Positions 1 through 19,585 of a DNA stretch of 64,000 bases are shown here, piece after piece. The DNA is from Ignavibacteria bacterium (GTDB taxonomy: Bacteria > Bacteroidota > Ignavibacteria > SZUA-365), in assembly GCA_016720835.1 (NCBI GenBank), contig JADKJW010000031.1:310625-374624 (forward strand), in the 5' to 3' direction. A program made the position numbers and the translations under genes. How positions within the stretch are numbered: position 1 is the stretch's first letter; every line of letters begins with the position of its first letter. The notes beneath the pieces are model-generated. The model saw only the letters and a program-made list of their open reading frames with translations, was not told the DNA's origin and made no database searches.

Positions 1-298
1 GAAGATCCGCCGCAACCTCGCCATCACCTGGGTGATTTCGATCTTCGTGAACATCGGCATGTGGTTCGAGCGTTTCGTGATCATCGCCACCTCGCTGCAT
101 CGCGACTTTCTGCCCTCCAGCTGGGGCTACTTCACGCCGACCTGGATCGACGTCTCGATTTTCGCCGGCACCGTGGGCATTTTCCTGACGCTCTTCCTGC
201 TCTTCGCGAAGTACCTGCCCGTGCTCGCGATGGCGGAGGTGAAGAGCATTCTTCCCGGCGCGCAACCCACGCACAACGGACACGGAGGAACGCACTGA
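1..298 (+). CDS. actC: Alternative complex III subunit ActC (NrfD/PsrC-like membrane subunit), 3' partial
   Basis: C-terminal hydrophobic TM-rich ORF ([18 protein letters not shown]...) running in from the window edge. It is followed by DUF3341 (ActD), a monoheme cytochrome c (ActE) and a second NrfD-like protein (ActF), the canonical ACIII order. The stop overlaps the actD ATG (TGATG). Confidence 0.65.
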
Positions 299-837: not shown

Positions 838-1480
838 ACGCCACCGTATCCTCGCCGGCGCCGTTCTCGGCGTCGCCGTCCTCGTCTTCGTCGCGCTCTG
901 GGCCGGCAACGACTTCCAGCCGCTGCGCTCCACCGAGCCGCCTTTCCAGCTGCGCTACGACATGCAGTACCAGCAGAACCTGCGCGCGCAGCAGCCGAGC
1001 AGCGCCTTCGCAGACCGCAAGTCCATGCGCGATCATGTGCCCGGCACCCTGCCGCGCGACGGCGAGGTGTTCACCGACACGAGCTGGGAGCAAACCGAGG
1101 CGCGCCTCCGCGATCCGCTGCCCCCGGCCACGCCCGCGCTGCTCGCGCGCGGCCGCAACCGCTTCAACAGCTTCTGCGCGCCCTGCCATTCCGCCAACGG
1201 ACAGGACACCACCGAGGTGGTGCGCAAGGGCATGCAGAAGCCGCCCAACCTCGCCGCCGCCAAGGCGAAGGGATATTCGGATGCGCATCTCTTTTACATC
1301 ATCAGCCGGGGACAGAACATCATGCCGGGCTACGCCGACAAGCTCGTGCCGGCCGATCGCTGGGCGGTGATCCGTCACGTGCGCGAGCTGCAGAAGCAGC
1401 CGCTGCGGTACCCCGATCCGGCGCTGGCAAAGACGGACACCTCGAAACGCGCGCCCGCGACGGCGCAGGCAGGGAAGTGA
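830..1480 (+). CDS. actE: Alternative complex III monoheme cytochrome c subunit ActE
   Basis: N-terminal signal/TM anchor and a single CxxCH heme-binding motif (CAPCHSANGQ). Position between ActD and ActF. Confidence 0.7.
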   Translation: MHKRHRILAGAVLGVAVLVFVALWAGNDFQPLRSTEPPFQLRYDMQYQQNLRAQQPSSAFADRKSMRDHVPGTLPRDGEVFTDTSWEQTEARLRDPLPPATPALLARGRNRFNSFCAPCHSANGQDTTEVVRKGMQKPPNLAAAKAKGYSDAHLFYIISRGQNIMPGYADKLVPADRWAVIRHVRELQKQPLRYPDPALAKTDTSKRAPATAQAGK

Positions 1481-2652
1481 TCATGGACCACACCGCCGCA
1501 CTCCTCGCCGGCACGCCCTTCGTCAAGCGCCTCGGCATGGCCGGACTGCTCCTCGCGGTTCTCGGCATCGCCCTTTCCGTCGTCGCCGCCCTGACGCACA
1601 GCGAGCGCTTCCTCTTCGCGTACCTCACGGCCTTCGTCTTCTTCGGGGGCATCGCCGTCACCGGCGTCTTCTTCAGCATGCTGCAGTACCTCGTGCGCGC
1701 GGGCTGGAGCGTGAGCATCCGCCGCATTCCCGAGTTCATGGGCGCCTTCACGCCCTTCCTCATTCTGCTGCTGCTGCCCATCGCCTTCGGCGCGGGCACC
1801 CTCTACCATCACTGGGCGCATCCCGCGGTCGGGGACGTCGTGCTCGGCGGCAAGAAGGCCTGGCTCAACATGCCCTTCTTCCTCGCGCGGCTCGGCATCT
1901 ACTGCGCGATCTGGAGCGGCCTGTACTGGTTCATCGCGGGGAATTCCTTCCGGCAGGACAAGACCACCGATCTGAAATACACCCGCAGGAACTGGACATT
2001 CAGCGCGCCCGCCGTGATCCTCTTCGGCGCGTCGATGACCTTCGCCGCCTTCGATCTGCTGATGTCGCTCGATCCCCACTGGTACAGCACCATTTTCGGC
2101 GTGTACTATTTCTCCGGATCGCTGGTCGGCGCGCTCGCCGTCATCACCATCATCGCGGTGCTGCTGCGCAAGGCGGGACTCCTCACCGAGTGGCTCACGC
2201 CCGCGCGCTTCCACGATCTCGGCAAGCTGCTCTTCGCGTTCAACATCTTCTGGACCTACATCGCCTTTTCGCAGTACCTGCTGATCTGGTACGCGAACCT
2301 CCCGGAAGAAGTCATCTTCTTCACGACGCGCCTCCAGAACGGATGGCAGGCCGCCTCGCTGCTGCTGCTCGTGATCCACTTCCTCCTGCCCTTCGCGCTG
2401 TTGCTGTCGCAGGCCGCGAAGAAGAATCCCACCGTGCTGCTCTCCGGCGCCGTGCTGCTGCTCATCGCGCATGCGTTGGACATGTACTGGCTCGTCACGC
2501 CCAACCTCTCCAAACACCTCCTCATTCCCGGCTGGATCGAACTCGCCCCCATGCTCGGCATCGGAGGGCTCTTCCTGCTCGTGCTCGCATGGCAGTTCAA
2601 AAAGCGCAGCGCCGTGCCGGTGAATGATCCGTTTTTGTCGGAAGGGAAGTAG
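1477..2652 (+). CDS. actF: Alternative complex III subunit ActF (NrfD-like polytopic membrane protein)
   Basis: About 390 aa with roughly 10 predicted TM helices and NrfD/PsrC-like composition. GTG at 1477 overlaps the actE stop; an ATG follows at 1483. Last gene of the act cluster. Confidence 0.65.
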   Translation: MIMDHTAALLAGTPFVKRLGMAGLLLAVLGIALSVVAALTHSERFLFAYLTAFVFFGGIAVTGVFFSMLQYLVRAGWSVSIRRIPEFMGAFTPFLILLLLPIAFGAGTLYHHWAHPAVGDVVLGGKKAWLNMPFFLARLGIYCAIWSGLYWFIAGNSFRQDKTTDLKYTRRNWTFSAPAVILFGASMTFAAFDLLMSLDPHWYSTIFGVYYFSGSLVGALAVITIIAVLLRKAGLLTEWLTPARFHDLGKLLFAFNIFWTYIAFSQYLLIWYANLPEEVIFFTTRLQNGWQAASLLLLVIHFLLPFALLLSQAAKKNPTVLLSGAVLLLIAHALDMYWLVTPNLSKHLLIPGWIELAPMLGIGGLFLLVLAWQFKKRSAVPVNDPFLSEGK

Positions 2653-2659
2653 GATTGGG

Positions 2660-2935
2660 GACCAATTAAAGATCCGGGTGGGACCCCGCCTGCGTTCGCG
2701 AATAGCGAACTTCGGCGTGCAGGCCGGCGTTCCTGTCGGCCGATTCCGGGAGTGATGGAGTTGTGGAGTGTTGGAGTGAATCAAGATGCCGGGTGGGGCC
2801 GGTGTCCCTGCCGGCCGATTCCGGGGCTGCTGGAGTGATAGAGTGAATCAGATCGCCGGGTGGGGCCGGCGTCCCGCCGGCGATTGACGCGATGCTGGAT
2901 GGTGGATGGTGGATGCTTGATGATAGATGCTGATT
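2660..2935. repeat. REP-like intergenic repeat array: three tandem units of about 60-70 bp, then short GGTGGATG direct repeats
   Basis: Units read gatccgggtgggaccccgcctg..., gatgccgggtggggccggtgtccctgccggccgattccgggg and gatcgccgggtggggccggcgtcccgccggcgattg. Unit 1 carries a hairpin-capable insert (cctgc-gttcgc-gaata-gcgaac-...-gcagg). An inverted copy of unit 1 is present at 40105-40251. Confidence 0.6.
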
Positions 2936-3006
2936 ATTGAAACGTCACATTCTCGTATTTCATACTTCCTGGTTCATCGTTCATTCTTCATTCTTCCGAC
3001 CCACGG

Positions 3007-3909
3007 ATGCCCCGCCTGTCCTTGTGCTTCGCTGCCGTCGTTGTTCTCCATTGTTTCGTGATGGAGACGTTTTGCATTGGCCAGCCGAACAAGATAGACA
3101 GCTTGAGCCGCGTGCTGGAGACGCAGGGTATGGCCCAACAACGTGCCCAGACGCTTGCGACGCTGAACGAGGAGATTTACCGGGAGCTTCTCAAGCTGCA
3201 GCCTGACAAGCAGGTTAAACTGGTCGACATCATGCTGTTCAAGTTACAGAGGCAGCTACAGGAACTCGAACGGAAGACGGTGGAAGCAGAGCGGCGCTGA
3301 ACTGAACAAGCAGCGCGAGGAAAATGCGAGGAAGAAAAAGGAAATCGACCTCCTCGCGAGAAACATGCAGTTGCAAACCACCTTGAATGCGTCTCTGCGG
3401 AATTGTCGGAAAGCGGGCAACAGGGCGAGACGCACGCCATCACCGTGCGCATCGAGAAACACTTCGACCCCGAGGCCGGGGACATCGAAGTGTTGCCGCA
3501 GGAGATCAGCCGCGTGCTGCTCAACCTCATGGCCAACGCGATGTATGCTGTGCGCGAAAAAGCGAAGGACGCGAACGTCACCCTCGCCGCGCAACCCGGC
3601 GCCGCCGATGTCGGCATCGCCGCGATCAGCGAGTATGTTCCAACCATCACCGTATCCTCGCGCCGTCTTGCAGACGCGCTCGAGATCCGTGTCCGCGACA
3701 ACGGACCCGGCATCCCGTCCGATATCCGGGACAAGATCTTCCAGCCCTTCTTCACGACAAAGCCCACTGGTTCCGGCACGGGTCTCGGCCTCTCGATGAG
3801 TTACGACATCGTCACGAACGGCCACGACGGAACGCTCGCGTGCAGCAGCCCGCCCGCCTCAGCCCCGGAAGGCCCGGGCGCGGAATTTACAGTGACGCTG
3901 CCATTGTGA
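3007..3909 (+). pseudogene. Sensor histidine kinase remnant: coiled-coil N-terminal part plus a HATPase_c domain, interrupted by an in-frame TGA at 3298 and a frame change
   Basis: ORF 3007-3300 and ORF 3301/3403-3909 are in the same frame, separated by one stop. The best coiled-coil reading of 3300-3400 is in another frame ([26 protein letters not shown]). The C-terminal part carries the N-box ([12 protein letters not shown]) and the G-boxes ([15 protein letters not shown]). There is no H-box or sensor domain. Local GC is about 50% against about 65% in flanking DNA. Confidence 0.45.
3403..3909 (+). CDS. HATPase_c (histidine kinase ATP-binding) domain fragment, the largest intact ORF of the kinase remnant
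   Basis: N, G1 and G2 boxes are present. No DHp/HisKA domain lies upstream in frame. Confidence 0.5.
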
Positions 3910-3924
3910 AATGGCCCTTCGCCG

Positions 3925-5067
3925 TCAGTACATCTCCCTGACCACGGGGTGATTGTAGTTGAGCACGATGACGGTGAAATCGTAGGGTATGCCGGTCCGT
4001 TTTTCCAGATTCAGCACGCCCTTGAATTCGAGGTTGCCGAGCAGCGCCTTGCGCTGCCAGTCGGCGATGTGCGGGAGCGCATCGGAGAGGGTCCGGAGGA
4101 AGGGCGTCAGAAAGATATCGTGGTATTTGCCGAAGTTCCGGAGCAGGACCTCGAGGCAGGCGCGTTCGTTTTCGTCCAGGTCCGTGATGGGCTTGTTGAA
4201 CAATGCGTCGTTCGCGTCCCGGTCCCGTGATGCCAGGCTCGCAGGTGGCGAATCGTACGGTTTCACGACAGGCCCGGATGCTGCGCCGGCATCCGACGCG
4301 GGCTGGGAGAGATCTTCTCCTCCGGTGGAAACGACGGCCGACTCCGCGTGCATCGCGGCCTCGTCGGTCTGCTTCCGCGCTCGTTCCCGCTCTTCGCGCT
4401 CACGTTCTTCGCGCTCACGTTGTTCCTTGCGTTCGTTTTCCGCCTGCAGATAGTCGTTGTACCGTTTCGCCATCTCCTCCAGCTTCAGCAGCCGTTCAGG
4501 GGAAAAGAGGCCGTTGGCATCGATGAAGTTCGGCCTGCCGACGTTCAGCAGCAGGTCGCCCGAAAAATTGGCTTCGAAACCGACGGCAATCACCGTCTTG
4601 GCCTGCTTTTTCAGATGCTGGATCAGGGGGATGTAATCGCGGTCGCCCGCGAAGATCACGAAATGCTGAATCTCCGGCCGCGTGTACAGCACCTCCATGG
4701 CGTCGATGCAGAGCTTCATGTCGGCGGCGTTCTTGTGATCCGTGCCGAGCACGTTGAAGGTCTCGACGCCCATGAGGTACAGCGACCCCTGCGGCGTACT
4801 GCGCAACCGCTCGAAGTCCGCGTAGGCCTTCGAAATGATGGAGCGCACGCGGAAGGTTTCCTCCAGCCGCTTCTGCAGACTCATCAGCAGCTCGATGACC
4901 GCGTCGTTCAGCTCGGGGATATCGGCGTATGCGGCCTTGAGATGGTAGTACACATTTTCGTAATCGATGAACAGCGCCGCGAAGCGCTGCGGGCCGCTCT
5001 GCGCTTCCGTGTTCGACCGGCTCTCCGGCTCACCATCGCCGCTGCCGGGACGTCTCAGAGTATTCAT
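3925..5067 (-). CDS. NYN-domain (LabA-like PIN-fold RNase) protein with an acidic ER-repeat linker and a C-terminal OST-HTH/LOTUS-like region
   Basis: NYN hallmark residues (FIDYENV..., KNAADMKLCIDAMEV..., FAGDRDYIPLIQHLK). The low-complexity stretch reads REREEREREERERARK. Probable start is MNTLRR at 5067, preceded by ggaaacg; an in-frame ATG at 5124 is also possible. Confidence 0.65.
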   Translation of the reverse strand: MNTLRRPGSGDGEPESRSNTEAQSGPQRFAALFIDYENVYYHLKAAYADIPELNDAVIELLMSLQKRLEETFRVRSIISKAYADFERLRSTPQGSLYLMGVETFNVLGTDHKNAADMKLCIDAMEVLYTRPEIQHFVIFAGDRDYIPLIQHLKKQAKTVIAVGFEANFSGDLLLNVGRPNFIDANGLFSPERLLKLEEMAKRYNDYLQAENERKEQREREEREREERERARKQTDEAAMHAESAVVSTGGEDLSQPASDAGAASGPVVKPYDSPPASLASRDRDANDALFNKPITDLDENERACLEVLLRNFGKYHDIFLTPFLRTLSDALPHIADWQRKALLGNLEFKGVLNLEKRTGIPYDFTVIVLNYNHPVVREMY

Positions 5068-5154
5068 GGTGCGTCGTTTCCTTCGTGAACCTGTTCGTCT
5101 GCAATGCGCGCTCCAGCGCCCCACTCACTCCTCCTCACTCCCCGTTCCATTCCG

Positions 5155-6135: not shown

Positions 6136-6602
6136 GACGATTCTCCTGCGTGGATGAATTTCTGCAAAAGAAAGTACAAACGAATGCGGAAAGGCGAAAC
6201 AGGCGGGCGGAAGGAACTCGCGAACGGACGCAGAATCGCCGAAATGCAGAAAACCCGCCGGTGGGCGGGATTTCTGCTGATGAGAGGAGCCTGCCGGGGG
6301 TGAGAGCCCCGTTGAGGCCGACGATGAGGAAGAATCAATCCATCACGACAAGAAAATAGCGAAATCCATGCCAGAGAGCATAATCGGCGTAATCGATTCC
6401 TTTTGAAGAAGATACAGCTATATCGTGCGAAATTTTTGCATGCTTCTTTCCTGAAATTGCTGCAATTTGCATCGCCCATGGGGTGTTTGCCGCGACCGGA
6501 CAGATTCTTCCCCAAAAAAACCGGGAACATTTTCGCGCGAGCCGAGTTCAATCCATTACAACCAAGCCGTCGAAGTCGGCATCCCTTCACCAAAGAAGGA
6601 TC

Positions 6603-9600
6603 ATGATCATGCGCACGACCATTCGTTTCGTGGCACTGCTCCTGGCTACGGCCGCCATCGCCGCCGTGCTGCCCGCGCTGTACAGCTCGATGTCGGAATC
6701 ACACTCTCTCGAGGGATCAACCATGAAACAGGACTCCTATCCCGAGCTGTGGAAAAAAGTGGACGAGGCGATACGCGAGGGAAAACCGCGTACCGCTCTC
6801 GACATCGTCGAGAAAATCTACAAGCAGGCCAAGGCCGAACGCAACGCGGTGCAGACCGTCAAAGCCGTCGCGTTCCGCGTCGCCCTCCGAGCCGAGACGA
6901 ACGAGGACGGGGAAATCATCCTGGTCCGCGATATCGAAAAGGAAATCCCCGACGTCCGCGAGCCGGCGAAGTCCATCTTCCATTCCATGCTCGGCGAAAT
7001 GTACTGGAGCTACTATCAACAGCATCAATGGGAGATCTCGAGCCGCACGGTGACGGCCGACTCCGCGTCCGACGACCTGCGCACCTGGGACGCGAAAAAA
7101 CTCTTCGAAGCCACCAAAAGACATTACCTCGCCTCGCTCGCGCCCGCCGCCGAGCTGCAGCGCGTGCCGCTCGCCGATGTAAAGGACCTGCTCATCGACG
7201 GCTTCAACGGCGACGCATACCGGACTTCCGTGTATGATATTCTCGCGCATCGCGCGGTGGACTTCTTCGCCGACGACCGCGGCAATCTTCCCAAACCCAC
7301 GCGCGAATTCGAGGTCACCACGCTCGACGCCCTCGCGTCGGCGGAGCAGTTCGCGCAGCACCGCTTCGAGACGCCCGATTCCAGCGACAACACCTGGGTG
7401 GCCCTCGAACTGTACCAGCACCTGCTCCGCGCCCATCTGCGCGACCGGGCGCCCGACGCGCTCGTGGACCTCGATCTCGACCGCCTCGCCTTCGCGCGTC
7501 GCATCACCTACCACGATGAGAAGGACACCGCGTACGTCGACGCCCTCACCGCGCTCGCCGCGCGCCATCAGGCGCACGCCATCTCCGCGGAGGTCGGTTA
7601 CCGCATCGCGCAGTACCAGTACGACCGCGGCGACTACGTCAACGCGCTCGCCCGCTGCGACCGCGAAATCGCGCGGCACGGACAGCAACGCGGCGGCGTG
7701 AACTGCACGAACCTCCGCGCGCAGATCCTCGCGAAGGAGATCGATTACGCGGTGGAGAGCACCGTCGCGCCCGAGACCCCCATCCTCGCGGCGGTGACGT
7801 ATCGCAACCTTCCGCGCGTGTATTGCCGCATCCTGCCCGACGAGATCGATGACGAAGATCCCCGCCGTCCGCGCTCCGCGGAGGAGCGCATGCGCGCCCT
7901 GCTGAAGCGGAAAACCCTGCAGGCCTGGTCGGCGGCGCTGCCCGACGCGAAGGACTACAAGACGCACGTGGCGGACATCGCCGCGCCGGCGATGCCGATC
8001 GGCACCTACGTGCTCGTGATGAGCGCGCGCGAGGATTTTTCGCTGACGAACAACCGCCTCGCCGTCGGCCCGCTGCGCGTCACGCGGCTGAGCCTGCAGA
8101 GCCAGCAGCTGCTCGACTGCACGCACCTGTTCTGGATCCGCGAGGCCGACAACGGCGCGCCGCTCGGCGACGTGACCGCGAAACTCTCCATGCGCCGCTG
8201 GAATTCCTCGAACTACAAGTACGAGAAGATCCCGTTCCGCGACATGGTGTCCGACAGGAACGGCCGCGTGAAGCTCGAGCCCGGCAGCGCGCGCGACTAT
8301 CTCTACGTGACGCTCGAGCGCGGCGGCGACCGGCTCGCGCTCGACGAGGGTTTCTACCCCTGCACGCGCAATCCACCGGACAGCAAGCTGCGGACGATCT
8401 TCTTCACCGATCGCGGCCTGTACCGTCCGGGACAGACGGTGTTCTTCAAGGGCCTCACCGTGCGCTACGACGCCGATCAGGTGGGGCGCAGCGCCGCGAA
8501 GGGCGTGCAGAGCACGGTGGACTTCCTCGACGCGAACTACCAGAAAATCGCCTCGCAGTCCTTCACCACCAACGAATTCGGCAGCTTCCAGGGCACCTTC
8601 ACCGTGCCGACCGGTGTGCTGACGGGGACCATGACGCTGCGCTCCCAGCACGGCAGCGTGCAGATCCAGGTGGAGGAGTACAAGCGGCCGAAATTCGAAG
8701 TGACCTTCGAGGCCGCCAAAGGCACCTTCAAACTCTACGACAACATCACGGTGAAGGGCAACGCGAAAGCGTACGCCGGCGCGAATATCGACGGCGCCGC
8801 GGTGACGTACCGCGTCGTGCGGCAGGCGCGTTATCCCTTCTGGTGCTGGTGGTGGCGCAACCAGCCGCGCTCCGAAACCAAGGAGATCGCGCACGGCATC
8901 ACGAAAACCGCCGCGGATGGCACCTTCGAAATCACCTTCCCGGCGTTGCCGGACAAGTCGGTGCAGAAGAGCACGCTCCCGGTGTTCAGCTACGCGGTCA
9001 CCGCCGATGTGACCGACATGAGCGGCGAGACGCGCAGCGGCGCCACGACGGTTTCCGTCGGCTACACCGCCATCGTGCTGAGCGCCGTGCTTCCGCCCGT
9101 GCTCGACGCGAATGTCCCCGCCATCGCCGTCTTTGCTTCCACCAACCTGAACGGCTCGCCCGTGACGGCCCGCGGCACCGTGCTCGTCGAGAAACTGCGC
9201 AATCCCGCGCGCGTGCTTCGCGAGCGCCTGCTGCCGCAGCCCGACCAGTTCGCGATGAGCCGCGAGGAATTCAAGCGCGCTTTCCCGAACGACGTGTGGA
9301 AGGACGAGAACATCGAGGACACCTGGCCCGTGGAAAAGACCGCGGTCAGACAGGAGTTCTCGACGAACGCGGCCGGACAGGACACCGTCAGTCTCAAAGA
9401 CCTCGAACCCGGCCGCTACCGCGTCACGCTCACAGCGAAGGATCCCTCGGGCGAGACGCTCACGCTGAAGCAGTTCTTCACCGCCTACGCTTCGGACGCG
9501 AAGGAGCCCGCGACGACGGAAGGCTCCGTGCTCATCCCCGTCGCGGTGACGGGACAGCCGGGCACGAAGGCCACGGTGATCTTCGGCACCTCATTTTCGG

Positions 9601-10217
9601 ATGCGCGTATCCTGTATCAGGTGGAGCGCCGCGGCGTCATCACCGAGGAGCGCTGGCTGAAGATGAGCGGCGAGCAGCGGGCCTTCTCCGTGCCGATCCG
9701 CGAGGAGGACCGCGGGGGATTCACGCTGCGCTTCTCGCTGGTGAAGAACCGGAGGATCTACTCCGAGGAAGCCTACATCGCCGTGCCGTGGACGAACAAG
9801 GAACTGAAGATCACCACGTCGGTATTCCGCGACAAGATGCTGCCCGGCTCCAAAGAAGAATGGCGTCTCTCCGTGAAGGGCGAAAACGCCGAGGCCATCG
9901 CGGCGGAACTCGTCGCGGCGATGTACGACGCCTCGCTCGACGCCATCCGCGGGCACTGGTGGGAATCGCTCGCCTGGCCCACGTGGTACACGCAGGCGCG
10001 CATGAGTACGCACGCCTTCGGCACCAGTACGGCATCGATGCACGATTTCGATCTGAACCCGTATCCGGGCTCCTGGTCGCTGAGCTACCCGCGCCTCAAC
10101 CTCTTCCTCCTCGACGACGGCGGCTGGTACGGCCGCGGTCGCAGATACCGCATGATGGCGAAGAGCGGCATGATGAACGAAGCCGCGGCGCCATGGCAGC
10201 GCAGCGTGAACTCATGA
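6603..10217 (+). CDS. Alpha-2-macroglobulin family protein, copy 1, N-terminal segment (signal peptide plus MG domains up to the bait region)
   Basis: Start MIMRTTIRFVALLLATAAIAAV with a gaagga RBS. About 1200 aa of MG-like beta-domain repeats, homologous to the copy-2 N-terminus. The frame ends at TGATGA (10215-10220) inside the predicted bait region. The reading continues in frame +2 and then returns to frame 0 (see 10341-12674). Confidence 0.7.
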   Translation: MIMRTTIRFVALLLATAAIAAVLPALYSSMSESHSLEGSTMKQDSYPELWKKVDEAIREGKPRTALDIVEKIYKQAKAERNAVQTVKAVAFRVALRAETNEDGEIILVRDIEKEIPDVREPAKSIFHSMLGEMYWSYYQQHQWEISSRTVTADSASDDLRTWDAKKLFEATKRHYLASLAPAAELQRVPLADVKDLLIDGFNGDAYRTSVYDILAHRAVDFFADDRGNLPKPTREFEVTTLDALASAEQFAQHRFETPDSSDNTWVALELYQHLLRAHLRDRAPDALVDLDLDRLAFARRITYHDEKDTAYVDALTALAARHQAHAISAEVGYRIAQYQYDRGDYVNALARCDREIARHGQQRGGVNCTNLRAQILAKEIDYAVESTVAPETPILAAVTYRNLPRVYCRILPDEIDDEDPRRPRSAEERMRALLKRKTLQAWSAALPDAKDYKTHVADIAAPAMPIGTYVLVMSAREDFSLTNNRLAVGPLRVTRLSLQSQQLLDCTHLFWIREADNGAPLGDVTAKLSMRRWNSSNYKYEKIPFRDMVSDRNGRVKLEPGSARDYLYVTLERGGDRLALDEGFYPCTRNPPDSKLRTIFFTDRGLYRPGQTVFFKGLTVRYDADQVGRSAAKGVQSTVDFLDANYQKIASQSFTTNEFGSFQGTFTVPTGVLTGTMTLRSQHGSVQIQVEEYKRPKFEVTFEAAKGTFKLYDNITVKGNAKAYAGANIDGAAVTYRVVRQARYPFWCWWWRNQPRSETKEIAHGITKTAADGTFEITFPALPDKSVQKSTLPVFSYAVTADVTDMSGETRSGATTVSVGYTAIVLSAVLPPVLDANVPAIAVFASTNLNGSPVTARGTVLVEKLRNPARVLRERLLPQPDQFAMSREEFKRAFPNDVWKDENIEDTWPVEKTAVRQEFSTNAAGQDTVSLKDLEPGRYRVTLTAKDPSGETLTLKQFFTAYASDAKEPATTEGSVLIPVAVTGQPGTKATVIFGTSFSDARILYQVERRGVITEERWLKMSGEQRAFSVPIREEDRGGFTLRFSLVKNRRIYSEEAYIAVPWTNKELKITTSVFRDKMLPGSKEEWRLSVKGENAEAIAAELVAAMYDASLDAIRGHWWESLAWPTWYTQARMSTHAFGTSTASMHDFDLNPYPGSWSLSYPRLNLFLLDDGGWYGRGRRYRMMAKSGMMNEAAAPWQRSVNS

Positions 10218-10340
10218 TGACGGCCGACGCCGTCGGCGGCGCCAAGGAGGAACGCGACGAGAAGAAGAAGGACGGCGCCGCGCCGCCTCCGCCTCCCGGC
10301 GCTCCGCGCGAAGACAAACCCAAAGAAGACGTCTCCGGGC

Positions 10341-12674
10341 GTGAAGGCGCGGACGAACTTCAACGAGACGGCGTTCTTCTTCCCGCAGCTGCGGACGGAC
10401 GAGTCGGGCGGCATCACGCTGGCCTTCACGATGCCGGAGGCGCTCACGCGCTGGCGCTTCATGGCCTTCGCGCACACGCCGGACATGAAGACCGGCATGC
10501 TGCAGAAGTTCGCCGTCACGCAGAAGGAACTCATGGTGGTGCCGAACGCCCCGCGCTTCCTGCGCGAAAGCGACGTCATCGTCTTCCCGGTCAAGATCAC
10601 CAACCTCGCCGACCGCGACCTCGCCGGCACGGCGAAGCTCCAGATCTTCGACGCGCTCACCATGCAGCCGCTGGATGCGGAGTTCAAACTCGCCGATGCG
10701 GAGAAGTCCTTCAGCACCATCAAAGGCCAGAGCACCAGCGTGAGCTGGCAGTTGAAGGTGCCCGAAGGCCTCTCGGCCATCGTGTACCGCGTGGTGGCGA
10801 AGTCCGGCGATTACTCGGACGGGGAAGAGGCGCCGCTGCCCGTGCTGCCGAACCGCATGCTGGTCACCGAGACCATGCCGCTCAACGTGCGCGGCAACTC
10901 CTCCCGCACGTACACGTTCGAGAAGCTCGTGAACGCGGGCTCGTCGAAAACGCTGCGGCATCAGGCCTTGACGCTCGAGATGACCTCGCATCCGGCCTGG
11001 TACGCCGTGCAGGCGCTGCCGTACCTGCAGGAGTTCCCGTACGAGTGCTCGGAACAGAGCTTCAACCGCCTCTACGCGAACAGTATCGCCCAGCACCTCG
11101 TCAACTCGAGCCCCAAGATCAAGCGCGTCTTCGAATCGTGGAAGGGCACGGACGCATTGGTCTCGAATCTCGAGAAGAATCAGGAACTGAAATCCCTGCT
11201 GCTGCAGGAGACGCCATGGGTGATGCAGGGCAAGGACGAAGGCGAGCGGAAGAAGCGCATCGCGCTGCTCTTCGACCTCAACACGATGGCAAACAACCTC
11301 GAGTCCGCGCTGCGCCGTCTCGAGAAGGCGCAGGGCTCGAACGGCGGCTTCCCGTGGTTCCCCGGCATGCCCGAGAGCCGCTACATCACGCAGTACATCG
11401 TGGCGGGCTTCGGGCACCTGCGCGAACTCGGCATCGACGTGTCGGAGCCGCGCATCAAGCGCATGGTGGAGCGCGCGGTGACGTACTGCGATCAGGACAT
11501 GCGCTACGACTACGAGCGGCTGAAGGCGACGCCGGGCTTCAACCCGAAGCTCGATCACCTCGGCTACACCGAGATCCAGTACCTGTACGCGCGCAGCTAC
11601 TTCGTCAAGCAGGAGATGCCGAAGGAATGCGTCGAGGCCTTCGAGTTCTGGAAGACGCAGGCGCGGCGCTACTGGCTGGGCAAGGGCCTGATGTGCGAAG
11701 GGCAGCTGGCGCTGGCGTTCTTCCGCTTCGACGAGAAGAAGATCGCGCTCGAAGTCCTCGCCTCGCTCAAGGAGCGCGCGCTGCAGAACGACGAGATGGG
11801 CATGTACTGGAAGCAGAACGGCGGCTGGTGGTGGTATCAGGCGCCGATCGAGACGCAGGCCGTGCTGGTGGAAGCGTTCGATGAAATCGCGAACGACAAG
11901 CTGGCGGTGGAGGAGATGAAGATCTGGCTGCTGAAGCAGAAGCAGGTGCAGGACTGGCGCACCACCGTCGCCACGGCGGACGCCTGCTACGCGCTGCTGC
12001 GCCGGGGCGCGGACCTGATCTCGTCGGACAAGCTGGTGGAAGTGACGCTCGGCGGAAAGAACGTGACGCCGGTGCAGGGCGACGGGACGAAGGTGGAGGC
12101 GGGGACGGGCTACTACAAGCTCTCGTACAACCGCACGGAAGTGAAGCCGGAGATGGGCCGGGTGACGGTGAAGAAGACGGACGAGGGGATCGCGTGGGGC
12201 TGCGTGTACTGGCAGTACTTCGAGCAGCTCGACAAGATCACGCCGGCAAAGACGCCGCTGCAGATCGAGAAGAAGCTGTACAAGCAGGTGAACACCGACC
12301 AGGGCCTCGTGCTGGAGCCGATCACGGAGAACAGCCCGCTGAAGGTGGGCGACATCCTGAAGACGCGCGTGGAGATCCGTGTGGACCGCGACATGGAGTA
12401 CGTGCACATGAAGGACATGCGCGGCGCGGGCTTCGACCTGATCAACCAGCTCTCGCGCTACAACTGGCAGGGGCGTCTCGGCTACTACGAGGCGCCGAAG
12501 GACGCGTCGGTGAACTTCTTCATCTACTGGCTTCCGAAGGGCGTGCACGTGTTCGAGTACGCGCTGCGGGTCTCGCACGCGGGCGTGTTCTCGAACGGCA
12601 TCTCGACGATCCAGTGCATGTACGCCCCCGAGTTCGCCGCCCACACCCAGGGCTTCACCGTGACGGTCAAATAA
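10341..12674 (+). CDS. Alpha-2-macroglobulin family protein, copy 1, C-terminal segment (thioester domain plus receptor-binding domain)
   Basis: Carries the thioester motif (FPYECSEQSFNRLYAN), the A2M_comp region and a C-terminal MG/RBD domain. Same frame as 6603-10217. The two segments are separated by a pair of compensating indels in C/G homopolymers, so they are probably one about 2020-aa gene. Confidence 0.7.
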   Translation: MKARTNFNETAFFFPQLRTDESGGITLAFTMPEALTRWRFMAFAHTPDMKTGMLQKFAVTQKELMVVPNAPRFLRESDVIVFPVKITNLADRDLAGTAKLQIFDALTMQPLDAEFKLADAEKSFSTIKGQSTSVSWQLKVPEGLSAIVYRVVAKSGDYSDGEEAPLPVLPNRMLVTETMPLNVRGNSSRTYTFEKLVNAGSSKTLRHQALTLEMTSHPAWYAVQALPYLQEFPYECSEQSFNRLYANSIAQHLVNSSPKIKRVFESWKGTDALVSNLEKNQELKSLLLQETPWVMQGKDEGERKKRIALLFDLNTMANNLESALRRLEKAQGSNGGFPWFPGMPESRYITQYIVAGFGHLRELGIDVSEPRIKRMVERAVTYCDQDMRYDYERLKATPGFNPKLDHLGYTEIQYLYARSYFVKQEMPKECVEAFEFWKTQARRYWLGKGLMCEGQLALAFFRFDEKKIALEVLASLKERALQNDEMGMYWKQNGGWWWYQAPIETQAVLVEAFDEIANDKLAVEEMKIWLLKQKQVQDWRTTVATADACYALLRRGADLISSDKLVEVTLGGKNVTPVQGDGTKVEAGTGYYKLSYNRTEVKPEMGRVTVKKTDEGIAWGCVYWQYFEQLDKITPAKTPLQIEKKLYKQVNTDQGLVLEPITENSPLKVGDILKTRVEIRVDRDMEYVHMKDMRGAGFDLINQLSRYNWQGRLGYYEAPKDASVNFFIYWLPKGVHVFEYALRVSHAGVFSNGISTIQCMYAPEFAAHTQGFTVTVK

Positions 12675-12703
12675 ACGATCACCTGCATTCATGCAGAACA
12701 CCG

Positions 12704-12736
12704 AGGGACGGAGCAATCCGTCCCTCGTTACTTTCC
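12704..12736 (+). terminator. Hairpin terminator candidate downstream of A2M copy 1
   Basis: The sequence gagggacgg-agcaa-tccgtccctc has a 9-bp perfect stem and is followed by gttactttcc. Confidence 0.4.
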
Positions 12737-12896
12737 GGCCTGCCGCCGTGTCAATGAAGCAGACGGGCTGCACCCGCACGCGCTGACCGTGACGGCCCGA
12801 TCCGACTCCCTGTGATAAACGGATTTCTTTCTCTACTATTGTCAGGGTTATTCACGCATCGATCGTACGCGCCTCGAGTACTCGAAGGAAGCCACC

Positions 12897-15800
12897 ATGC
12901 GACGCACCTGCCTTGTTCTTGCCGTCCTCTTGACCGTCAGCTCCTGCGCGGTACAGACGGTCCTTCGCGACCCGGGAATGTCTTCAGCGCCGGCCAATGG
13001 CTTGACGCGCACGGAGGAATCCTACACAGAAATATGGAAGGCAGTGGATGAAGCGATGAAGAGCGGGAAACCCCGTACCGCGCTCGAGATTGTCGAGACG
13101 ATATACACGCGGGCCGTGTCGGAACGGAATACGGTGCAGATCGTCAAGTCCGTGTCTCACCGTGTTGCGCTCCGCGCCGAGTTGAACGAGGACGGGGAAC
13201 TCCTGCTCGTTCGCGATCTGGAGGCGGAGATTCGGATTTCCGGAGACCTGCCGGCGGCGATATTCCATTCCATGCTCGGGCAGTTCTACTGGACGTATTA
13301 TCAACAGCATCAGCGCGAAATATCCGGGCCGAACGGCGACAACGGACACGGCCTCTGGAGACTTCCGCACCTGGGATGCGAGGAAGCTCTTCGAGGCCGC
13401 GAAAATACACTACCTCGCGTCGCTGCGCACCGCGGCCCTTCTGCAGCGCGTGCCGCTCTCGGACGTAAAGGACCTGCTGGTTACAGGGTACAACAGCGAT
13501 GCGTACCGGAGCGACGCATACCGGACATCGGCGTACGATATTCTCGCGCATCGCGCGGTGGAATTCTTCGCCGACGGCCGCACCGGGCTTCCGTCCGCGT
13601 CGGGCGAGTTCGGGTTCGAGACCCTCGACGGGTTGCTCCCCACATTGCAGTTCGTTGAGCAGCGCCTCGAGCCGTCCGACTCCAGCGACAACGCCCGGAT
13701 CGCCCTCGGCCTGTACAGGCATCTGCTGCGCGCGCATCTGGGCGATGCCGGGCCGGACGCGCTCGTGGATCTCGATCTCCTCCGCCTGGACTTCGCGCGG
13801 CGCATCACCCGGCATGACAACAAGGATACCGCATACTTCGGAGCGCTCGTGGAGCTGTATCTCCGCCACGCATCGGCATCCATCTCCGCCGAAGTGGGGT
13901 ACCGCATGGCGCAGTATCACTACGACCGTGGTGATTATCCCGCAGCGCTCGCAATCTGCGAACGAGAAATTGAACGATTCCCGGATTCCCGCGGAGGCGT
14001 GCATAGCGAAAATCTCCGAGCGAAAATCCTCACGAAGGAGTTGGACTTCTTTGTCGAAAAATCCGTGCTCCCCGGCAAGCCGATACTCGTCGCCGTCCGT
14101 TACCGTAATCTCTCGCGCGTCTACTGTCGTATCCTGGCGGAGAAACAATACCGGCAGATGTACGAGCAGTTCGAGCAGAAGGCGCGTACCGAAAGCGTGC
14201 GCATTCTGCTCGAATCGAAAATCCTTGAAGAATGGACAGTGGAGTTACCAGGAGCACAGGATTACCAAAGGCATGTGGTCGATATCGCCGCCCCCTCGAT
14301 GCCCGTCGGCAACTATATCATGGTCGTGAGTACACGCGAGGACTTTTCGAGAACAAAGCCCAACACGCTTGCTGTGTGTGAGTTGCATGTCACAGGATTG
14401 AGCATGCAGAGCCAGCACTTGCGGGATCAATCGGATCTGCTGTGGATACGCGACGCAGAAAACGGATACTCCTTGCCGGGTGTGACCGCGCACATGTATC
14501 ATCGCAGGGAGAACTGGTCGATCTCGAAGGTCGAGAAGATTCCGGTCCGTGATGCATTGTCGGACTCAAACGGATGCGTCAGACTCGAATTCGGCGCCTC
14601 GAACACCTCAATCAATGTCGCGTTGGAATGTAGCGGTGATACGTTCGATCCCGGAGAGAGTTACCATAAAGCTTCCTCCAAAATACGAGGTGAAACCGCG
14701 CGCGGTGTTTTTCACCGACCGCACACTCTACCGTCCAGGACAAACCGTCCTTTTCAAATGCCTCCTCGTGAACACAGACACGGATCGCACTGACCGGGAC
14801 GTCGCGACCAATCTGCCGGTGACTGTGGATTTGCAGGATGAGAGATCCCAGACTGTCGCGACTGAGAGCTTCATCAGCAATGCATTCGGCAGTGTTCAGG
14901 GAAGTTTCCACGTGCCGCAAGGAGCGTTCACCGGTCGCATGACATTGCGCTGCCAATTCGGCGCTGTGTCGATACGGGTGGAAGAGTACAAACGTCCGAA
15001 GTTTGAAGTGGTCATGGAGACCGTCAAGGGAGTGGTCGCATTGGGTGATACTGTCATCGTCGCCGGAACTGCCAAGGCGTTCTCCGGCGCCATGATCGAC
15101 CATGCGAAGGTGGTCTACATTGTGGTGCGTCACACGCATTTCGCCTCATGGTACTCCTCGGAAAGCGTCTATTCCTCAAGGAACCCTCCACCCCATTCCA
15201 GATAACCTCGTCATCTCGCAAGGGACGGTACCTACGGACGCCAAGGGACGATTCGAGATCACGTTCCCGGCTCTGCCTGATCGCGCCATTCCGCGTGGCA
15301 TGCAGCCCGTGTTCAGTTACGAGGTCCGTGTCGACGTCACTGATAATGCCGGTGAGACGCACAGCGGGACGAGCCTCGTGCTCGCCGGCTATTCATCTGT
15401 GCTGCTCTCCGCTACGGTGCCCGAATCCTTTGATGTTCACGCGAAGGCTGCTGTGGCCATCAACTCCACCAACATGAATCATGCTCCCGTTTCCATCCGC
15501 GGGAGCGTGTCGGTGGAGAAACTCCGCGTGCCCGACCGGGTGTATCGTCAACGCATACTGCCGTGGCCTGACCGCTTCGCGATGAGCCGCGAAGAATTCA
15601 TACGCGCTTTCCCGAACGATGTTTGGAAAGATGAACACATCGAGGACACCTGGCCTGTGGAGAAAATCGCCATCAGGCAGGATTTCTGGACGAATGCGGC
15701 GGGACAGGACACCGTGCAGCTCGCGCAGCTCGAACCCGGACGGTATCGTGTCATCGTCTCTGCAAAGGATCCTTCAGGAGACACGCTCCTCCTGAAGTAT

Positions 15801-18800
15801 TTCTTCACTGCCTATTCCGACGACACGAATGCGCCGGCGACGATGGAAGGCTCGATGCTCTATCCCTTCATGCAGACCTGCGAGCCGGGCGATACCGCGA
15901 GAGTGCTCTTCGGGACGTCGTTTTCGGATGCGCGTCCTGTATCAGGTCGAACGCATGCGAGGCATTACGGAAGAGCGCTGGTTGCTCTTGAACAATGAAC
16001 AGCGCGCATTTTCCTGTCCGATCGCCGAAGAGGATCGCGGAGGAGTCCGGATGCGCTTCTCGATCGTTCGGGATGGTCGCCACTATCTGAAAGAGGCGTT
16101 CATTACCGTGCCGTGGACCAACAAGGAATTGGTGCTCAGCACTTCGGTATTCCGCGACAAGATGCTGCCCGGAACGAAGGAGGAGTGGCGACTTACCGTA
16201 AAGGGCGGGAAGGCTGAGACCGTCGCTGCCGAACTGGTCGCGACCATGTACGATGCCTCACTCGATGCGATCGATAGAAATGATTGGGCGACGTTCACCA
16301 ATCCCATGTTGCGCGGCTCCAGGATGCAGATGGCAGGGGCCGGCGTATTATCCGCATCGAATTATGATTTCAAGTTGAATTCGTCACTGCCGACCTTCAA
16401 CCTCGCCTACCCGCGTCTCAATCTTTTCCTTCTCGACAATGGTCGTGGCCGGTATCGCGAAATCGGGAACACGACGGTTGGGAGCATGATGTACACTCGC
16501 GGGGGCAGAGGAGGTCCGATTGTCGATCTGAACGCCACAAGCAGTAGGGAGACAATCTCTGCATTAACTGCTGGCGTCATGAACGAACCCGTACCCGGTG
16601 CTGCAGAACAACAACCCAAAGAAGACCTCTCCGGCGTGAAGGCTCGGACGAACTTCAACGAGACGGCGTTCTTCTTCCCGCAGCTGCGGACGGACGAGTC
16701 GGGCGGCATCACGCTGGCCTTCACGATGCCGGAGGCGCTCACGCGCTGGCGCTTCATGGCCTTCGCGCACACGCCGGACATGAAGACCGGCATGCTGCGA
16801 AGTTCGCCGTCACGCAGAAGGAACTCATGGTGGTGCCGAACGCCCCGCGCTTCCTGCGCGAAAGCGACGTCATCGTCTTCCCGGTCAAGATCACCAACCT
16901 CGCCGACCGCGACCTCGCCGGCACCGCGAAGCTCCAGATCTTCGACGCGCTGACGATGCAGCCGCTGGATGCGGAGTTCAAACTCGCCGATGCGGAGAAG
17001 TCCTTCAGCACCATCAAGGGCCAGAGCACCAGCGTGAGCTGGCAGTTGAAAGTGCCCGAAGGCCTCTCGGCCATCGTGTACCGCGTGGTGGCGAAGTCGG
17101 GCGATTACTCCGACGGGGAGGAAGCGCCGCTGCCCGTGTTGCCGAACCGCATGCTGGTCACCGAGACCATGCCGCTCAACGTGCGCGGCAATTCCTCCCG
17201 CACGTACACCTTCGAGAAGCTCGTGAACGCGGGCTCGTCGAAAACGCTGCGACATCAGGCCTTGACGCTCGAGATGACTTCGCATCCGGCCTGGTACGCC
17301 GTGCAGGCGCTGCCGTACCTGCAGGAGTTCCCGTACGAGTGCTCGGAGCAGACCTTCAACCGCCTGTACGCGAACAGCATCGCCCAGCATCTGGTGAACT
17401 CGAGCCCCAAGATCAAGCGCGTCTTCGAGTCGTGGAAGGGTACGGACGCATTGGTCTCGAATCTCGAAAAGAATCAGGAACTGAAATCGCTGCTGATTCA
17501 GGAGACGCCGTGGGTGATGCAGGGGAAGGACGAGGGCGAGCGGAAGAAGCGCATCGCGCTGCTGTTCGATCTCAACACGATGGCGAACAACCTCGAGTCC
17601 GCGCTGCGCCTGCTCGAAAAGGCGCAGGGGTCGAACGGCGGCTTCCCGTGGTTCCCCGGCATGCCCGAGAGCCGCTACATCACGCAGTATATCGTGGCGG
17701 GCTTCGGGCACCTGCGCGAACTCGGCATCGACGTCTCCGAGCCGCGCATCAAGCGCATGGTGGAGCGCGCGGTGACGTACTGCGATCAGGACATGCGCTA
17801 CGACTACGAACGGCTGAAGGCCTCGCCGGGCTTCAACCCGAAGCTCGATCACCTCGGCTACACCGAAATCCAGTACCTGTACGCGCGCAGTTACTTCGTC
17901 AAGCAGGAAATGCCGAAGGAATGCGTCGAGGCCTTCGAGTTCTGGAAGACGCAGGCGCGGCGCTACTGGCTGGGCAAGGGCCTGATGTGCGAGGGACAGC
18001 TGGCTCTGGCGTTCTTCCGTTTCGACGAGAAGAAGATCGCGCTCGAGGTGCTGGCATCGCTCAAGGAGCGCGCGCTGCAGAACGAGGAGATGGGCATGTA
18101 CTGGAAGCAGAACGGCGGCTGGTGGTGGTATCAGGCGCCGATCGAGACGCAGGCCGTGCTGGTGGAGGCGTTCGATGAAATCGCGAACGACAAGCTGGCG
18201 GTGGAGGAGATGAAGATCTGGCTGCTGAAGCAGAAGCAGGTGCAGGACTGGCGCACCACGGTCGCCACGGCGGACGCCTGCTACGCGCTGCTGCGCCGGG
18301 GCGCGGACCTGATCTCCTCGGACAAGCTGGTGGAAGTGACGCTCGGCGGAAAGAACGTGACGCCGGTGCAGGGCGACGGGACGAAGGTGGAGGCGGGGAC
18401 GGGCTACTACAAGCTCTCGTACAACCGCACGGAAGTGAAGCCCGAGATGGGCAAGGTGACGGTGAAGAAGTCGGACGAGGGGATCGCGTGGGGCTGCGTG
18501 TACTGGCAGTACTTCGAGCAGCTCGACAAGATCACGCCGGCGAAGACGCCGCTGCAGATCGAGAAGAAGCTGTACAAGCAGGTGAACACCGACCAGGGGC
18601 CTCGTGCTCGAGCCGATCACGGAGAACAGCCCGCTGAAGGTGGGCGACATCCTGAAGACGCGCGTGGAGATTCGTGTGGACCGCGACATGGAGTACGTGC
18701 ACATGAAGGACATGCGCGGCGCGGGCTTCGACCTGATCAACCAGCTCGCGCTACAACTGGCAGGGGCGCCTCGGCTACTACGAGGCGCCGAAGGACGCGT

Positions 18801-18967
18801 CGGTGAACTTCTTCATCTACTGGCTGCCGAAGGGCGTGCACGTGTTCGAGTACGCGCTGCGTGTCTCGCACGCGGGCGTGTTCTCGAACGGCATCTCGAC
18901 GATCCAGTGCATGTACGCCCCCGAGTTCGCCGCTCACACCCAGGGCTTCACCGTGACGGTCAAATAA
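12897..18967 (+). pseudogene. Alpha-2-macroglobulin family lipoprotein, copy 2, broken into about 8 ORF fragments by frameshifts
   Basis: Lipoprotein signal (MRRTCLVLAVLLTVSSC). The homologous reading switches frame at about 13330 (+1, ccggg), about 14665 (+1), about 15200 (+1, cccc), about 15935 (2-nt deletion, at), about 16803 (1-nt deletion, a), about 18598 (+1, gggg) and about 18745 (2-nt deletion, tc). The thioester CSEQ motif is retained (YECSEQTFNRLYAN). The 5' 3.7 kb is about 53-57% GC. The 3' 2.3 kb is about 95% nucleotide-identical to copy 1. Confidence 0.6.
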
Positions 18968-18995
18968 TTTTGCCCATCATTTTCGACGAATAAAT

Positions 18996-19022
18996 TCAGG
19001 GCGTCCACGGGCGCCCTGAAAC
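18996..19022 (+). terminator. Hairpin terminator candidate downstream of A2M copy 2
   Basis: The sequence ttcagggcg-tccacgg-cgccctgaa has a 9-bp stem. Confidence 0.35.
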
Positions 19023-19075
19023 TTGTGTTGCGCTGCCTCCGTATATACCGCAGTCATTCGAAATCGGAGCCAGCC

Positions 19076-19585
19076 ATGAAAACGCACACCGTCACCGCCG
19101 CGATTCTGTTCCTGTTCACCGTATCCGCACCGTCCTTCTCACAGACGTCCTGTTCCAACGACCCGGGACTGCTCGACACGCCAGACGACATTCTGAACAT
19201 GGTGACACGCTCGGATGACACGCTGATCCAGACCTACGCGGAGTACCATCCCGTGCTGCTCAAGACCGCGCTCGACAATTACGCCGTGTGCCTGCGCTCC
19301 GACAACCATGGCGTCGTCGAGTCCGCCATCGCGCAGCTCGTGCGTCTGAAGCTCGATGTGCCGAACCTGAGCGCGCCCGACTGCGTGCGCGAGATGCGCC
19401 GGCTGTCCACCGAAGGCCGGACGCAGATGATACGGCTCAAGGCGCGCTTTGCCCTCATGCTCTGCGACGATCCGGCGCTCTTCGATCTCGCGCAGTTGCA
19501 TCGCAGCGACGAGCCGGACGCCGTCTTCGCGGAAATCGCGTCGCAACTCCGCTCGAAACTCATCGTCAGTGAAGCTCGCGAGTAA
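19076..19585 (+). CDS. Hypothetical secreted protein
   Basis: GGAGCC RBS and ATG at 19076. Signal peptide (MKTHTVTAAILFLFTVSAPSFSQ). No recognisable domain. Confidence 0.5.
   Translation: MKTHTVTAAILFLFTVSAPSFSQTSCSNDPGLLDTPDDILNMVTRSDDTLIQTYAEYHPVLLKTALDNYAVCLRSDNHGVVESAIAQLVRLKLDVPNLSAPDCVREMRRLSTEGRTQMIRLKARFALMLCDDPALFDLAQLHRSDEPDAVFAEIASQLRSKLIVSEARE

Follow-up and report, generated by a model that had tools for sequence, protein, structure and literature searches.

Evidence for gene conversion of the thioester module in a tandem pair of alpha-2-macroglobulin-like genes from an Ignavibacteria bacterium

The alpha-2-macroglobulins (A2Ms) of bacteria are known in two types. The gene pbpC, which encodes PBP1c, adjoins Type I genes in a number of bacteria, an arrangement which is typical but not obligatory, and the Type II proteins, which lack the CxEQ thioester motif, are encoded in the six-gene magABCDEF operon (PMC5764988). 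In Sa-A2M, the Salmonella protein, once the bait has been cut, the fragment extending from MG7 to the C-terminus stays bound to the protease (PMC5764988). In the wider superfamily, TEP1 of Anopheles is a chimaera of other loci for thioester-containing proteins (TEPs), produced by gene conversion (Obbard et al. 2008, PMC2576239). The locus described here occupies positions 6603-18967 of a 64,000-nucleotide stretch of DNA from an Ignavibacteria bacterium (the window, within which all positions are numbered). Here two A2M-like sequences, each of ~6.1 kb, follow one another head to tail on the + strand; they are widely diverged over the 5' 3.7 kb, as far as the bait, and nearly identical beyond it. 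The pattern points strongly to gene conversion of the post-bait module.

The family membership of the two sequences is clear. Pfam searches recovered MG2, A2M_BRD, A2M and bMG10 in copy 1 and the same families across the fragments of copy 2 (MG2 at E 3e-16 in copy 1 and E 5e-19 in copy 2; A2M_BRD in copy 1 at E 1.7e-7), and the A2M match (PF00207) lies directly 3' of the bait in both, so that each copy has an MG array with a bait-region domain. Both carry CSEQ within PYECSEQ, at nt 11046-11057 in copy 1 and 17340-17351 in copy 2; in 52 homologs the C and Q of CxEQ are at least 90% conserved and the E is invariant. The CxEQ of Type I A2Ms is therefore present in both copies, and the marks of Type II, absence of CxEQ and a mag operon, are not found. 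No Transgly/PBP domain, as expected of pbpC, occurs among the ~45 open reading frames (ORFs) of the window which were scanned. A preliminary description of this DNA had recognised tandem A2M genes with thioester motifs and no pbpC partner, and in these respects it was right. Its two genes of ~6 kb survive as adjacent A2M-like sequences, but not as intact ORFs. We regard the pair as two real, adjacent, paralogous genes for predicted protease traps of the thioester type. In carrying the thioester they would resemble Type I bacterial A2Ms functionally, but they belong to a long clade without pbpC, common in Bacteroidota and Ignavibacteria, which is only remotely similar in sequence to E. coli A2M (ECAM) or Sa-A2M. 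By analogy with the family, both copies would trap proteases: following export, a protease would cleave the exposed bait, the molecule would rearrange, and the protease would be captured covalently by the Cys-Gln thioester (CSEQ) buried in the thioester domain (TED).

The repeats are direct, with a spacing of ~6.29-6.33 kb, and span the whole of 6603-18967; inverted repeats are absent. An inverted-repeat reading was dropped, the minus-strand ORF of the same length at 16407-18740 being a high-GC artefact. The parts of the locus are as follows, GC3 denoting the GC content of third codon positions.

6603-12674, + strand: copy 1, A2M-like, ~2,020 aa once the frame is corrected
6603..10192, + strand: N-terminal part of copy 1, with hydrophobic N-terminus, helical region of ~380 aa, MG domains and bait-region domain
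7140..7590, + strand: probable older, shorter conversion tract of ~450 nt, partner in copy 2 at ~13426-13890
10193..10340, + strand: bait of copy 1, readable only in a shifted frame (MAAQRELMMTADAVGGAKEERDEKKKDGAAPPPPPGAPREDKPKEDVSG)
10341..12674, + strand: post-bait module of copy 1, predicted MG7-CUB-TED-MG8, CSEQ at 11046-11057, GC3 0.95, Pfam A2M and bMG10
12702..12727, + strand: terminator-like hairpin of 11 pairs, 28 nt past the stop codon of copy 1
12897-18967, + strand: copy 2, A2M-like, ~2,020 aa once the frame is corrected
12897..16632, + strand: N-terminal part and bait of copy 2, with lipobox signal, four frameshifts and GC3 0.70
16633..18967, + strand: post-bait module of copy 2, 97% identical to 10338-12674, CSEQ at 17340-17351, three indels
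18995..19020, + strand: terminator-like hairpin of 11 pairs, after the stop codon of copy 2

Divergence between the copies is a mosaic. In a global alignment, nucleotide identity by segment is 50-81% across 6693-10330 and 94-99% across 10338-12674 (partner 16633-18967). Codon alignments of the two halves were rebuilt across the frameshifts described below. Over the N-half (1,164 codons) the proteins are 58% identical, with synonymous divergence (dS) saturated at 1.23, non-synonymous divergence (dN) at 0.34 and their ratio, omega, at 0.28; over the C-half (777 codons) protein identity is 99%, dS 0.127-0.13, dN 0.0045-0.006 and omega 0.035-0.04. The dN/dS comparison by region, which had been proposed as a check, thus reveals divergence that is far from uniform. 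The 3' 2,334 nt (10341-12674 against 16633-18967) differ by 70 substitutions and three small indels, an identity of 97.0%; the near-identity claimed earlier holds up to the stop codon, although the figure then given, ~95%, was too low. Codon positions 1, 2 and 3 account for 5, 3 and 62 of these substitutions, and counting by the method of Nei and Gojobori (NG86) gives 62 synonymous differences (Sd) and 8 non-synonymous (Nd) over the C-half, which upholds the synonymous excess earlier put at ~40 against ~5.

The edges of the block of identity are equally sharp. Its start had been placed at ...CCCAAAGAAGAC, past the bait, and described as abrupt; in agreement with this, the maximum chi-square breakpoint falls at nt 10317 (chi2 839, with no value above 19.6 in 1000 permutations), with 35% mismatch to its left and 3.0% to its right. 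The unalignable bait ends here, and the first MG7 residues follow ~25 nt downstream. On the 3' side no difference occurs after 12641 and identity reaches the stop codon, as had been stated; beyond it the sequences downstream of copy 1 and copy 2 are unrelated, each copy having one hairpin of its own. When the halves were compared separately, the copies proved to be each other's nearest relatives in both, so that only branch lengths disagree and not topology. The only close relative found, nt 1-2274 of a JGI metagenome contig (3300044712; L081), covers the C-half only, with protein 88% identical across the final 605 aa. Family-wide, the C-half is more conserved than the N-half (54-70% against 31-46% identity).

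The abrupt and statistically supported change of dS between adjacent segments is what gene conversion, or non-reciprocal homologous recombination, leaves behind, and such an origin for the 3' identity is strongly supported. It was one of two causes offered in the preliminary description. The other, purifying selection, fails because selection on the protein cannot cut synonymous divergence tenfold, from ~1.2 to 0.13, within ~30 nt; it explains only why the few differences that arose after conversion are synonymous. The coincidence of the break with the bait had also been taken as a sign of modular selection, a reading which falls away since the tract extends just as far as alignable homology, which gives out in the indel-rich bait and beyond the stop codon. 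Because the C-half is the more conserved part family-wide, it would still have been a substrate for homologous exchange when the N-half and bait were not. The pattern would thus reflect a known process in a known family, and an adaptive modular reading is not needed to account for it.

Conversion probably ran from copy 1 to copy 2, with copy 1 as the donor. Across the breakpoint GC3 rises from 0.70 to 0.93 in copy 2 and from 0.88 to 0.95 in copy 1, the corresponding rise in single-copy relatives being +0.05 to +0.09; the block looks native to copy 1 because its rise resembles that of the single-copy relatives, whereas copy 2 jumps. GC-biased conversion was considered as the source of the high GC3 of the tract and set aside, since in single-copy relatives GC3 of the C-half exceeds that of the N-half in the same way. 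Conversion was also probably recurrent. The density of differences varies along the tract (1.3, 5.0 and 1.6 per 100 nt; chi-square p = 0.001). In the candidate older tract at 7140..7590 the fraction of identical codons among conserved residues is 0.70-0.76, against a background of ~0.45, GC3 of copy 2 reaches 0.84-0.92, and dS is 0.51 over 7203-7502. With L081 as outgroup the changes are divided about evenly, 29 falling on the copy 2 lineage and 22 on that of copy 1, the non-synonymous sites numbering 5 and 2 respectively. For copy 2 the probability of at most 5 non-synonymous changes in 28 under neutrality is 5e-11, and with only ~5/28 of its changes non-synonymous this copy has been under strong constraint for nearly all of the time since conversion.

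The identity of the converted module was approached by structure prediction. An AlphaFold2 (AF2) model of the 777-aa shared block, built with 52 homologs (predicted local distance difference test, pLDDT, 80.5), consists of beta, helical (aa 219-553) and beta segments. Its best Foldseek match in the PDB is 4ZIU, ECAM from MG7 to the C-terminus (E 3e-28), and further structure matches include 4U48 (Salmonella A2M), 5A42 (full-length ECAM), complement C3/C5, A2ML1 and TEP1, the E-values for 4ZIU, 4U48, 5A42, C3 and TEP1 being 1e-24 to 3e-28. Since the best match is to ECAM from MG7 to its C-terminus, the model identifies the shared block as MG7-CUB-TED-MG8. The model matches, together with bMG10 (Pfam, E 4e-29), place a predicted thioester domain nested in CUB ahead of a C-terminal MG domain. 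No TED family was matched in the Pfam search of the copies, and an NCBIfam search gave no match. A phmmer search against PDB sequences returned only a weak match to A2ML1, with no significant match to the ECAM or Sa-A2M chains.

Upstream of this module the copies differ in several respects. In copy 1, where 6483..10217 is a single-frame ORF with MG2 at aa 599-685 and A2M_BRD at aa 985-1111 (Pfam), the N-terminus is hydrophobic and without a lipobox, as it is in 18 relatives. The N-terminus of copy 2 fits the lipobox pattern (VLAVLLTVSSC, with Cys17 encoded at 12945-12947). The difference in export signal had been noted earlier and is borne out here; because copy 1 and the 18 relatives lack the lipobox, we take it to be a derived feature of copy 2. 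The preliminary description had seen the N-terminal ~1,240 aa as moderately similar MG domains. Moderate similarity is found (58% in protein), but not all of the region consists of MG domains, the first ~380 aa being predicted to be helical. In an AF2 model of the N-terminal 600 aa, which drew on an alignment of only four sequences and is of low confidence (pLDDT 59), aa 45-377 of copy 1 (nt 6735-7740) form an array of helical hairpins before the first beta domain. Neither Pfam nor NCBIfam has a match to the first ~380 residues of this long A2M clade, and copy 1 has no Pfam match before aa 599. The baits themselves are unalignable, that of copy 1 being K/E/P/M-rich and that of copy 2 G/S/T/N-rich; with its frame restored, the bait of copy 1 is Met-rich, like that of one relative (P0004). 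Given unalignable baits and different signals, it is plausible that the pair represents two traps recognising different proteases. A Trp-rich motif is present at 8830-8860 in copy 1 and in relatives (FWCWWWRN; YWYWWWRP in P0004). At 15140-15190 in copy 2 it is replaced by SWYSSESVYSSRN, which adjoins a copy 2 frameshift.

Neither copy is an open reading frame as sequenced, a point which the preliminary description missed. The frame of copy 1 runs from the ATG at 6603 to 10214 and then meets TGA TGA (10215-10220); the same frame resumes at 10341. The 148 nt between the two frame changes read cleanly and with high GC3, but only in another frame (MAAQRELMM...PKEDVSG), which joins the downstream VKARTNFNETAFF motif exactly as copy 2 does, so that copy 1 carries two 1-nt indels, one on either side of the bait. 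Reassignment of the TGA TGA stop codons was considered and rejected, because in the shifted frame the bait gives a clean, high-GC3 reading that agrees with the junction in copy 2. In copy 2, tblastn and the junction sequences locate seven frame changes. The lesions are the following.

~10191-10192, + strand: copy 1 indel, base missing in a CC run
10335-10337, + strand: copy 1 indel, extra G (GGG) where copy 2 has GG
~13322, + strand: copy 2 frameshift, GGG/CC run
~14668, + strand: copy 2 frameshift, AAA run
~15165, + strand: copy 2 frameshift, CCCC run
15935, + strand: copy 2 frameshift, 2-nt deletion
16799, + strand: copy 2 frameshift, A deleted
18596, + strand: copy 2 frameshift, extra G (GGG to GGGG)
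18745, + strand: copy 2 frameshift, CT deleted

All nine are indels of 1-2 nt, and several lie within runs of G, C or A. Once the frames are corrected neither copy has an internal stop codon, copy 2 running through ~1,940 aligned codons without a nonsense codon. Because nonsense codons are nil and the substitutions reveal strong constraint on both lineages, the nine indels are likely to be for the most part residual consensus errors, to which strain heterogeneity at a variable locus may have added.

Comparable damage is seen elsewhere. On the minus strand of the window, the gene for the [FeFe]-hydrogenase HydA (53802-55680) is split by a 1-nt indel near 55,110 in a G-run context (GTCGGGCAAGGGCG) into an N-terminal piece with Fer2/NADH-G/Fer4 and a C-terminal piece with Fe_hyd_lg_C/SSU domains, within an otherwise intact cluster of NuoE (56875-57381), NuoF (55693-56862) and HydA; we take the frameshift for a probable assembly error and use it as a marker of local quality. 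Among 80 related loci fetched from species-level genomes, in which the clade numbers at least 595 loci, 77 have N- and C-halves without a frame change, in a single ORF of ~2,000 aa. The A2M genes of the other three (L052, L067 and L074) are frame-split in their N-halves, and all three come from MAGs (metagenome-assembled genomes) of the 'MFD ... contig_' kind. Two NCBI proteins, P0064 (IPM69) and P0109 (IPP17), are A2M ORFs truncated in the middle of contigs of more than 200 kb. This suggests that the 6-kb A2M gene is often fragmented in long-read MAGs.

The origin of the window bears on the same question. Its 777-aa ORF at 10341-12671 (P0001) is 100% identical to the NCBI hypothetical protein IPP94_19835 [Ignavibacteria bacterium], encoded on a 379,677-nt MAG contig, and a 447-aa fragment of copy 2 is IPP94_19840. 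The IPP94 tag suggests the activated-sludge MAGs of Singleton et al., to which locus tags of the IPxx form would belong. That set was obtained from Nanopore reads by CANU assembly; polishing was by Racon, by medaka (twice) and, with Illumina reads, by a single further Racon round (PMC8012365).

The account which best explains these observations would run as follows. The paralogs diverged long ago, leaving the N-terminal 1,240 aa and bait 58% identical with dS saturated. The whole 2.33-kb post-bait module of one copy was later overwritten by gene conversion, most likely from copy 1 to copy 2 and probably in more than one event, the limits of the tract being set by those of homology, the indel-rich bait and the stop codon. 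Both modules would then have been under strong purifying selection, and the nine frame-breaking indels of 1-2 nt would be residual consensus errors of a long-read metagenome assembly. We assign this account as a whole a probability of roughly 0.6. A number of observations weigh against it. The direction of conversion is read from base composition only. Nine of the ten frameshifts detected in the window fall within the 12.4-kb locus, which makes up 19% of it (P = 3e-6), a clustering unexpected of random assembly error, albeit that elsewhere in the window frameshifts were recognised by GC3 phase and by the completeness of Pfam domains, a less sensitive means than the alignment of paralogs inside the locus. 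About 25 other genes of the window look intact, including those for FtsH, Der, MnmG, FeoB and an E1 dehydrogenase. Four of the seven frame changes in copy 2 fall in sequence that is unique, so that polishing with short reads ought to have been effective there, and three of the indels, two 2-nt deletions and the deletion of an A, are not homopolymer errors. The N-half of copy 2 is the poorer in GC3 and lies further from every outgroup than that of copy 1 (39-40% against 44-45% identity), which would fit relaxed constraint too. Finally, the nearest relative is only 88% identical in protein and lies on a single contig of 2,274 nt.

Much of this would equally suit a reading in which the indels are real, both copies or at least copy 2 being genuine, very recently inactivated pseudogenes at a locus in the course of being lost. 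The seven frame changes of copy 2 and two of copy 1, the latter exposing TGA TGA, the clustering of the lesions, those lying outside homopolymers, the low GC3 (0.70) and longer branch of the copy 2 N-half, and the annotation by NCBI of fragments only are all in its favour. What speaks for intact genes is the state of the sequence between the lesions. The corrected frames are free of nonsense codons, CSEQ and the family-invariant residues are intact, and omega is 0.035, the copy 2 lineage being no exception. Substitutions are several-fold commoner than indels in bacterial mutation spectra, and three real indels in the 2.3-kb block would for this reason predict tens of unconstrained substitutions, none of which is seen. 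The indel in HydA, moreover, occurs in a similar sequence context. Recent inactivation is accordingly possible, though on balance doubtful. A further reading makes copy 2 a one-step chimaera, in which a foreign or old N-half was fused to a fresh duplicate of the copy 1 module by partial duplication or illegitimate recombination, without repeated conversion between full-length paralogs. It would account for the GC3 jump from 0.70 to 0.93 exactly at the breakpoint, and for the lack of close relatives of the copy 2 N-half, which found none in JGI contigs and, among 5.8 billion proteins, matched only its own MAG. It sits poorly with copy 1 being the nearest relative of that N-half (58%, against at most 40% to all others), with homology which picks up again ~25 nt ahead of the MG7 motif and extends precisely as far as the stop codon, the pattern expected of homology-guided exchange, and with the heterogeneous divergence of the tract and the second, older tract in the N-half; we think it improbable.

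The 97% identity might also have been made or inflated during assembly or polishing, by a collapsed repeat, cross-mapped reads or strain haplotypes joined in tandem, since the source is probably a long-read metagenome assembly whose consensus is locally poor, with nine indels. Against this stand the 70 differing sites, 62 of them at third codon positions, which is a biological signature, and the fact that the 5' halves, the spacer between the genes and the flanks beyond each stop codon are all unique. What lies downstream of copy 2 is moreover conserved in the independent contig L081, and a second tandem A2M gene is found in 2/80 related loci; an artefact of this kind is very improbable. Purifying selection alone, keeping the 3' halves alike without recombination, could appeal to the greater conservation of the C-half across the family, but is refuted by the dS contrast, and third positions are 31% different even in the L081 ortholog, whose protein is 88% identical; we give it next to no credence. 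The pair might also be a maintained defence module with two sensors and one warhead, in which recurrent directional conversion would keep MG7-CUB-TED-MG8 interchangeable whilst scaffold, bait and signal diverge towards other proteases or compartments. If so, it would be a bacterial counterpart of the diversification of bait and hypervariable regions in animal TEPs, but we consider this unlikely. Gene conversion between paralogs, with assembly errors superimposed, remains the reading we prefer.

The wider relationships of the locus are consistent with its taxonomic source: its best relatives are Ignavibacteria and Bacteroidota MAGs, and a protein with a type IX secretion system (T9SS) tail adjoins it, both of which fit the taxonomy. 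Its other neighbours encode an NYN-domain protein, a DedA/VTT protein and an amino-acid permease. Look-up of the exact proteins of the neighbouring permease and of P0001 yielded no independent sequence of the same species. A scan of JGI contigs with profiles of copy 1 and copy 2 found nothing above 38% identity, and a scan of genome contigs nothing above 70%. Downstream of its A2M sequence, L081 has the same terminator hairpin as copy 2 and a homolog of the window ORF at 19025-19585; because these are shared, the downstream flank of copy 2 is taken to be the ancestral 3' flank of the locus. Tandem A2M genes are rare among the relatives (L025, L050). In one such pair (L050, 6398-18532, in a MAG labelled Alphaproteobacteria) the first copy has CAEQ and the second no CxEQ, in the manner of Type I and Type II; the two are uniformly 25-26% identical, with no conversion.

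Elsewhere in the window, the + strand ORF at 58067-60106 (679 aa) encodes a histidine kinase (HisKA and HATPase_c) with a fused sensory domain of hydrogenase-like type, made up of 4Fe-4S, Fe_hyd_lg_C and FeS domains. It is followed by a hybrid receiver/PAS/kinase gene (60114-61604, + strand), and both adjoin the hydrogenase cluster. The window opens with an alternative complex III gene (ActD; 1-2652, + strand) and then a cytochrome c gene; over 1-5,100 GC3 is 0.69-0.79, below that of most of the window.

The locus offers a clean case of partial concerted evolution in a bacterial gene pair resembling those of innate defence. Were both genes intact in vivo, they would amount to a natural bait-swap experiment on the protease specificity of bacterial A2Ms, and the case is relevant to the large and uncharacterised pbpC-less A2M clade as a whole. 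The main practical lesson is one of caution, in that residual indels can turn a 6-kb gene into several 'hypothetical proteins' in long-read MAGs; omega and the absence of nonsense codons can serve to flag genes fragmented in this way.

A number of parallels can be drawn with described systems. ECAM/YfhM and Sa-A2M (4ZIU, 5A42, 4U48) share with both copies a CxEQ thioester, a bait and an MG-CUB-TED-C-terminal MG architecture, at only 14-16% sequence identity in structural alignment. ECAM carries a lipoprotein signal, in which it resembles copy 2 but not copy 1 and the 18 relatives. The proteins of the locus are ~370 aa longer than ECAM and have a predicted helical N-terminal region, and the locus, unlike typical Type I genes, has no adjacent pbpC. 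P. aeruginosa MagD and E. coli YfaS, of Type II, are likewise large periplasmic MG-domain protease traps with a bait, and JGI labels the relatives 'YfaS (alpha-2-macroglobulin family)', but both copies of the present locus have CSEQ and are flanked by unrelated genes.

With Anopheles TEP1 the locus shares both the superfamily and non-reciprocal exchange between thioester-protein paralogs which leads to mosaic genes. TEP1 is eukaryotic, however, and conversion there creates divergent allelic classes at one locus, whereas here it would homogenise the effector module of two tandem bacterial genes whose sensor parts remain distinct. That bacterial duplicates evolve in concert is itself textbook knowledge. 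In tufA/tufB and the rRNA operons, RecA-dependent and recurrent conversion keeps paralogs near-identical, with tract ends set by the extent of homology. There the whole gene is homogenised; here it is only the 3' 38%, with a sharp boundary inside the gene.

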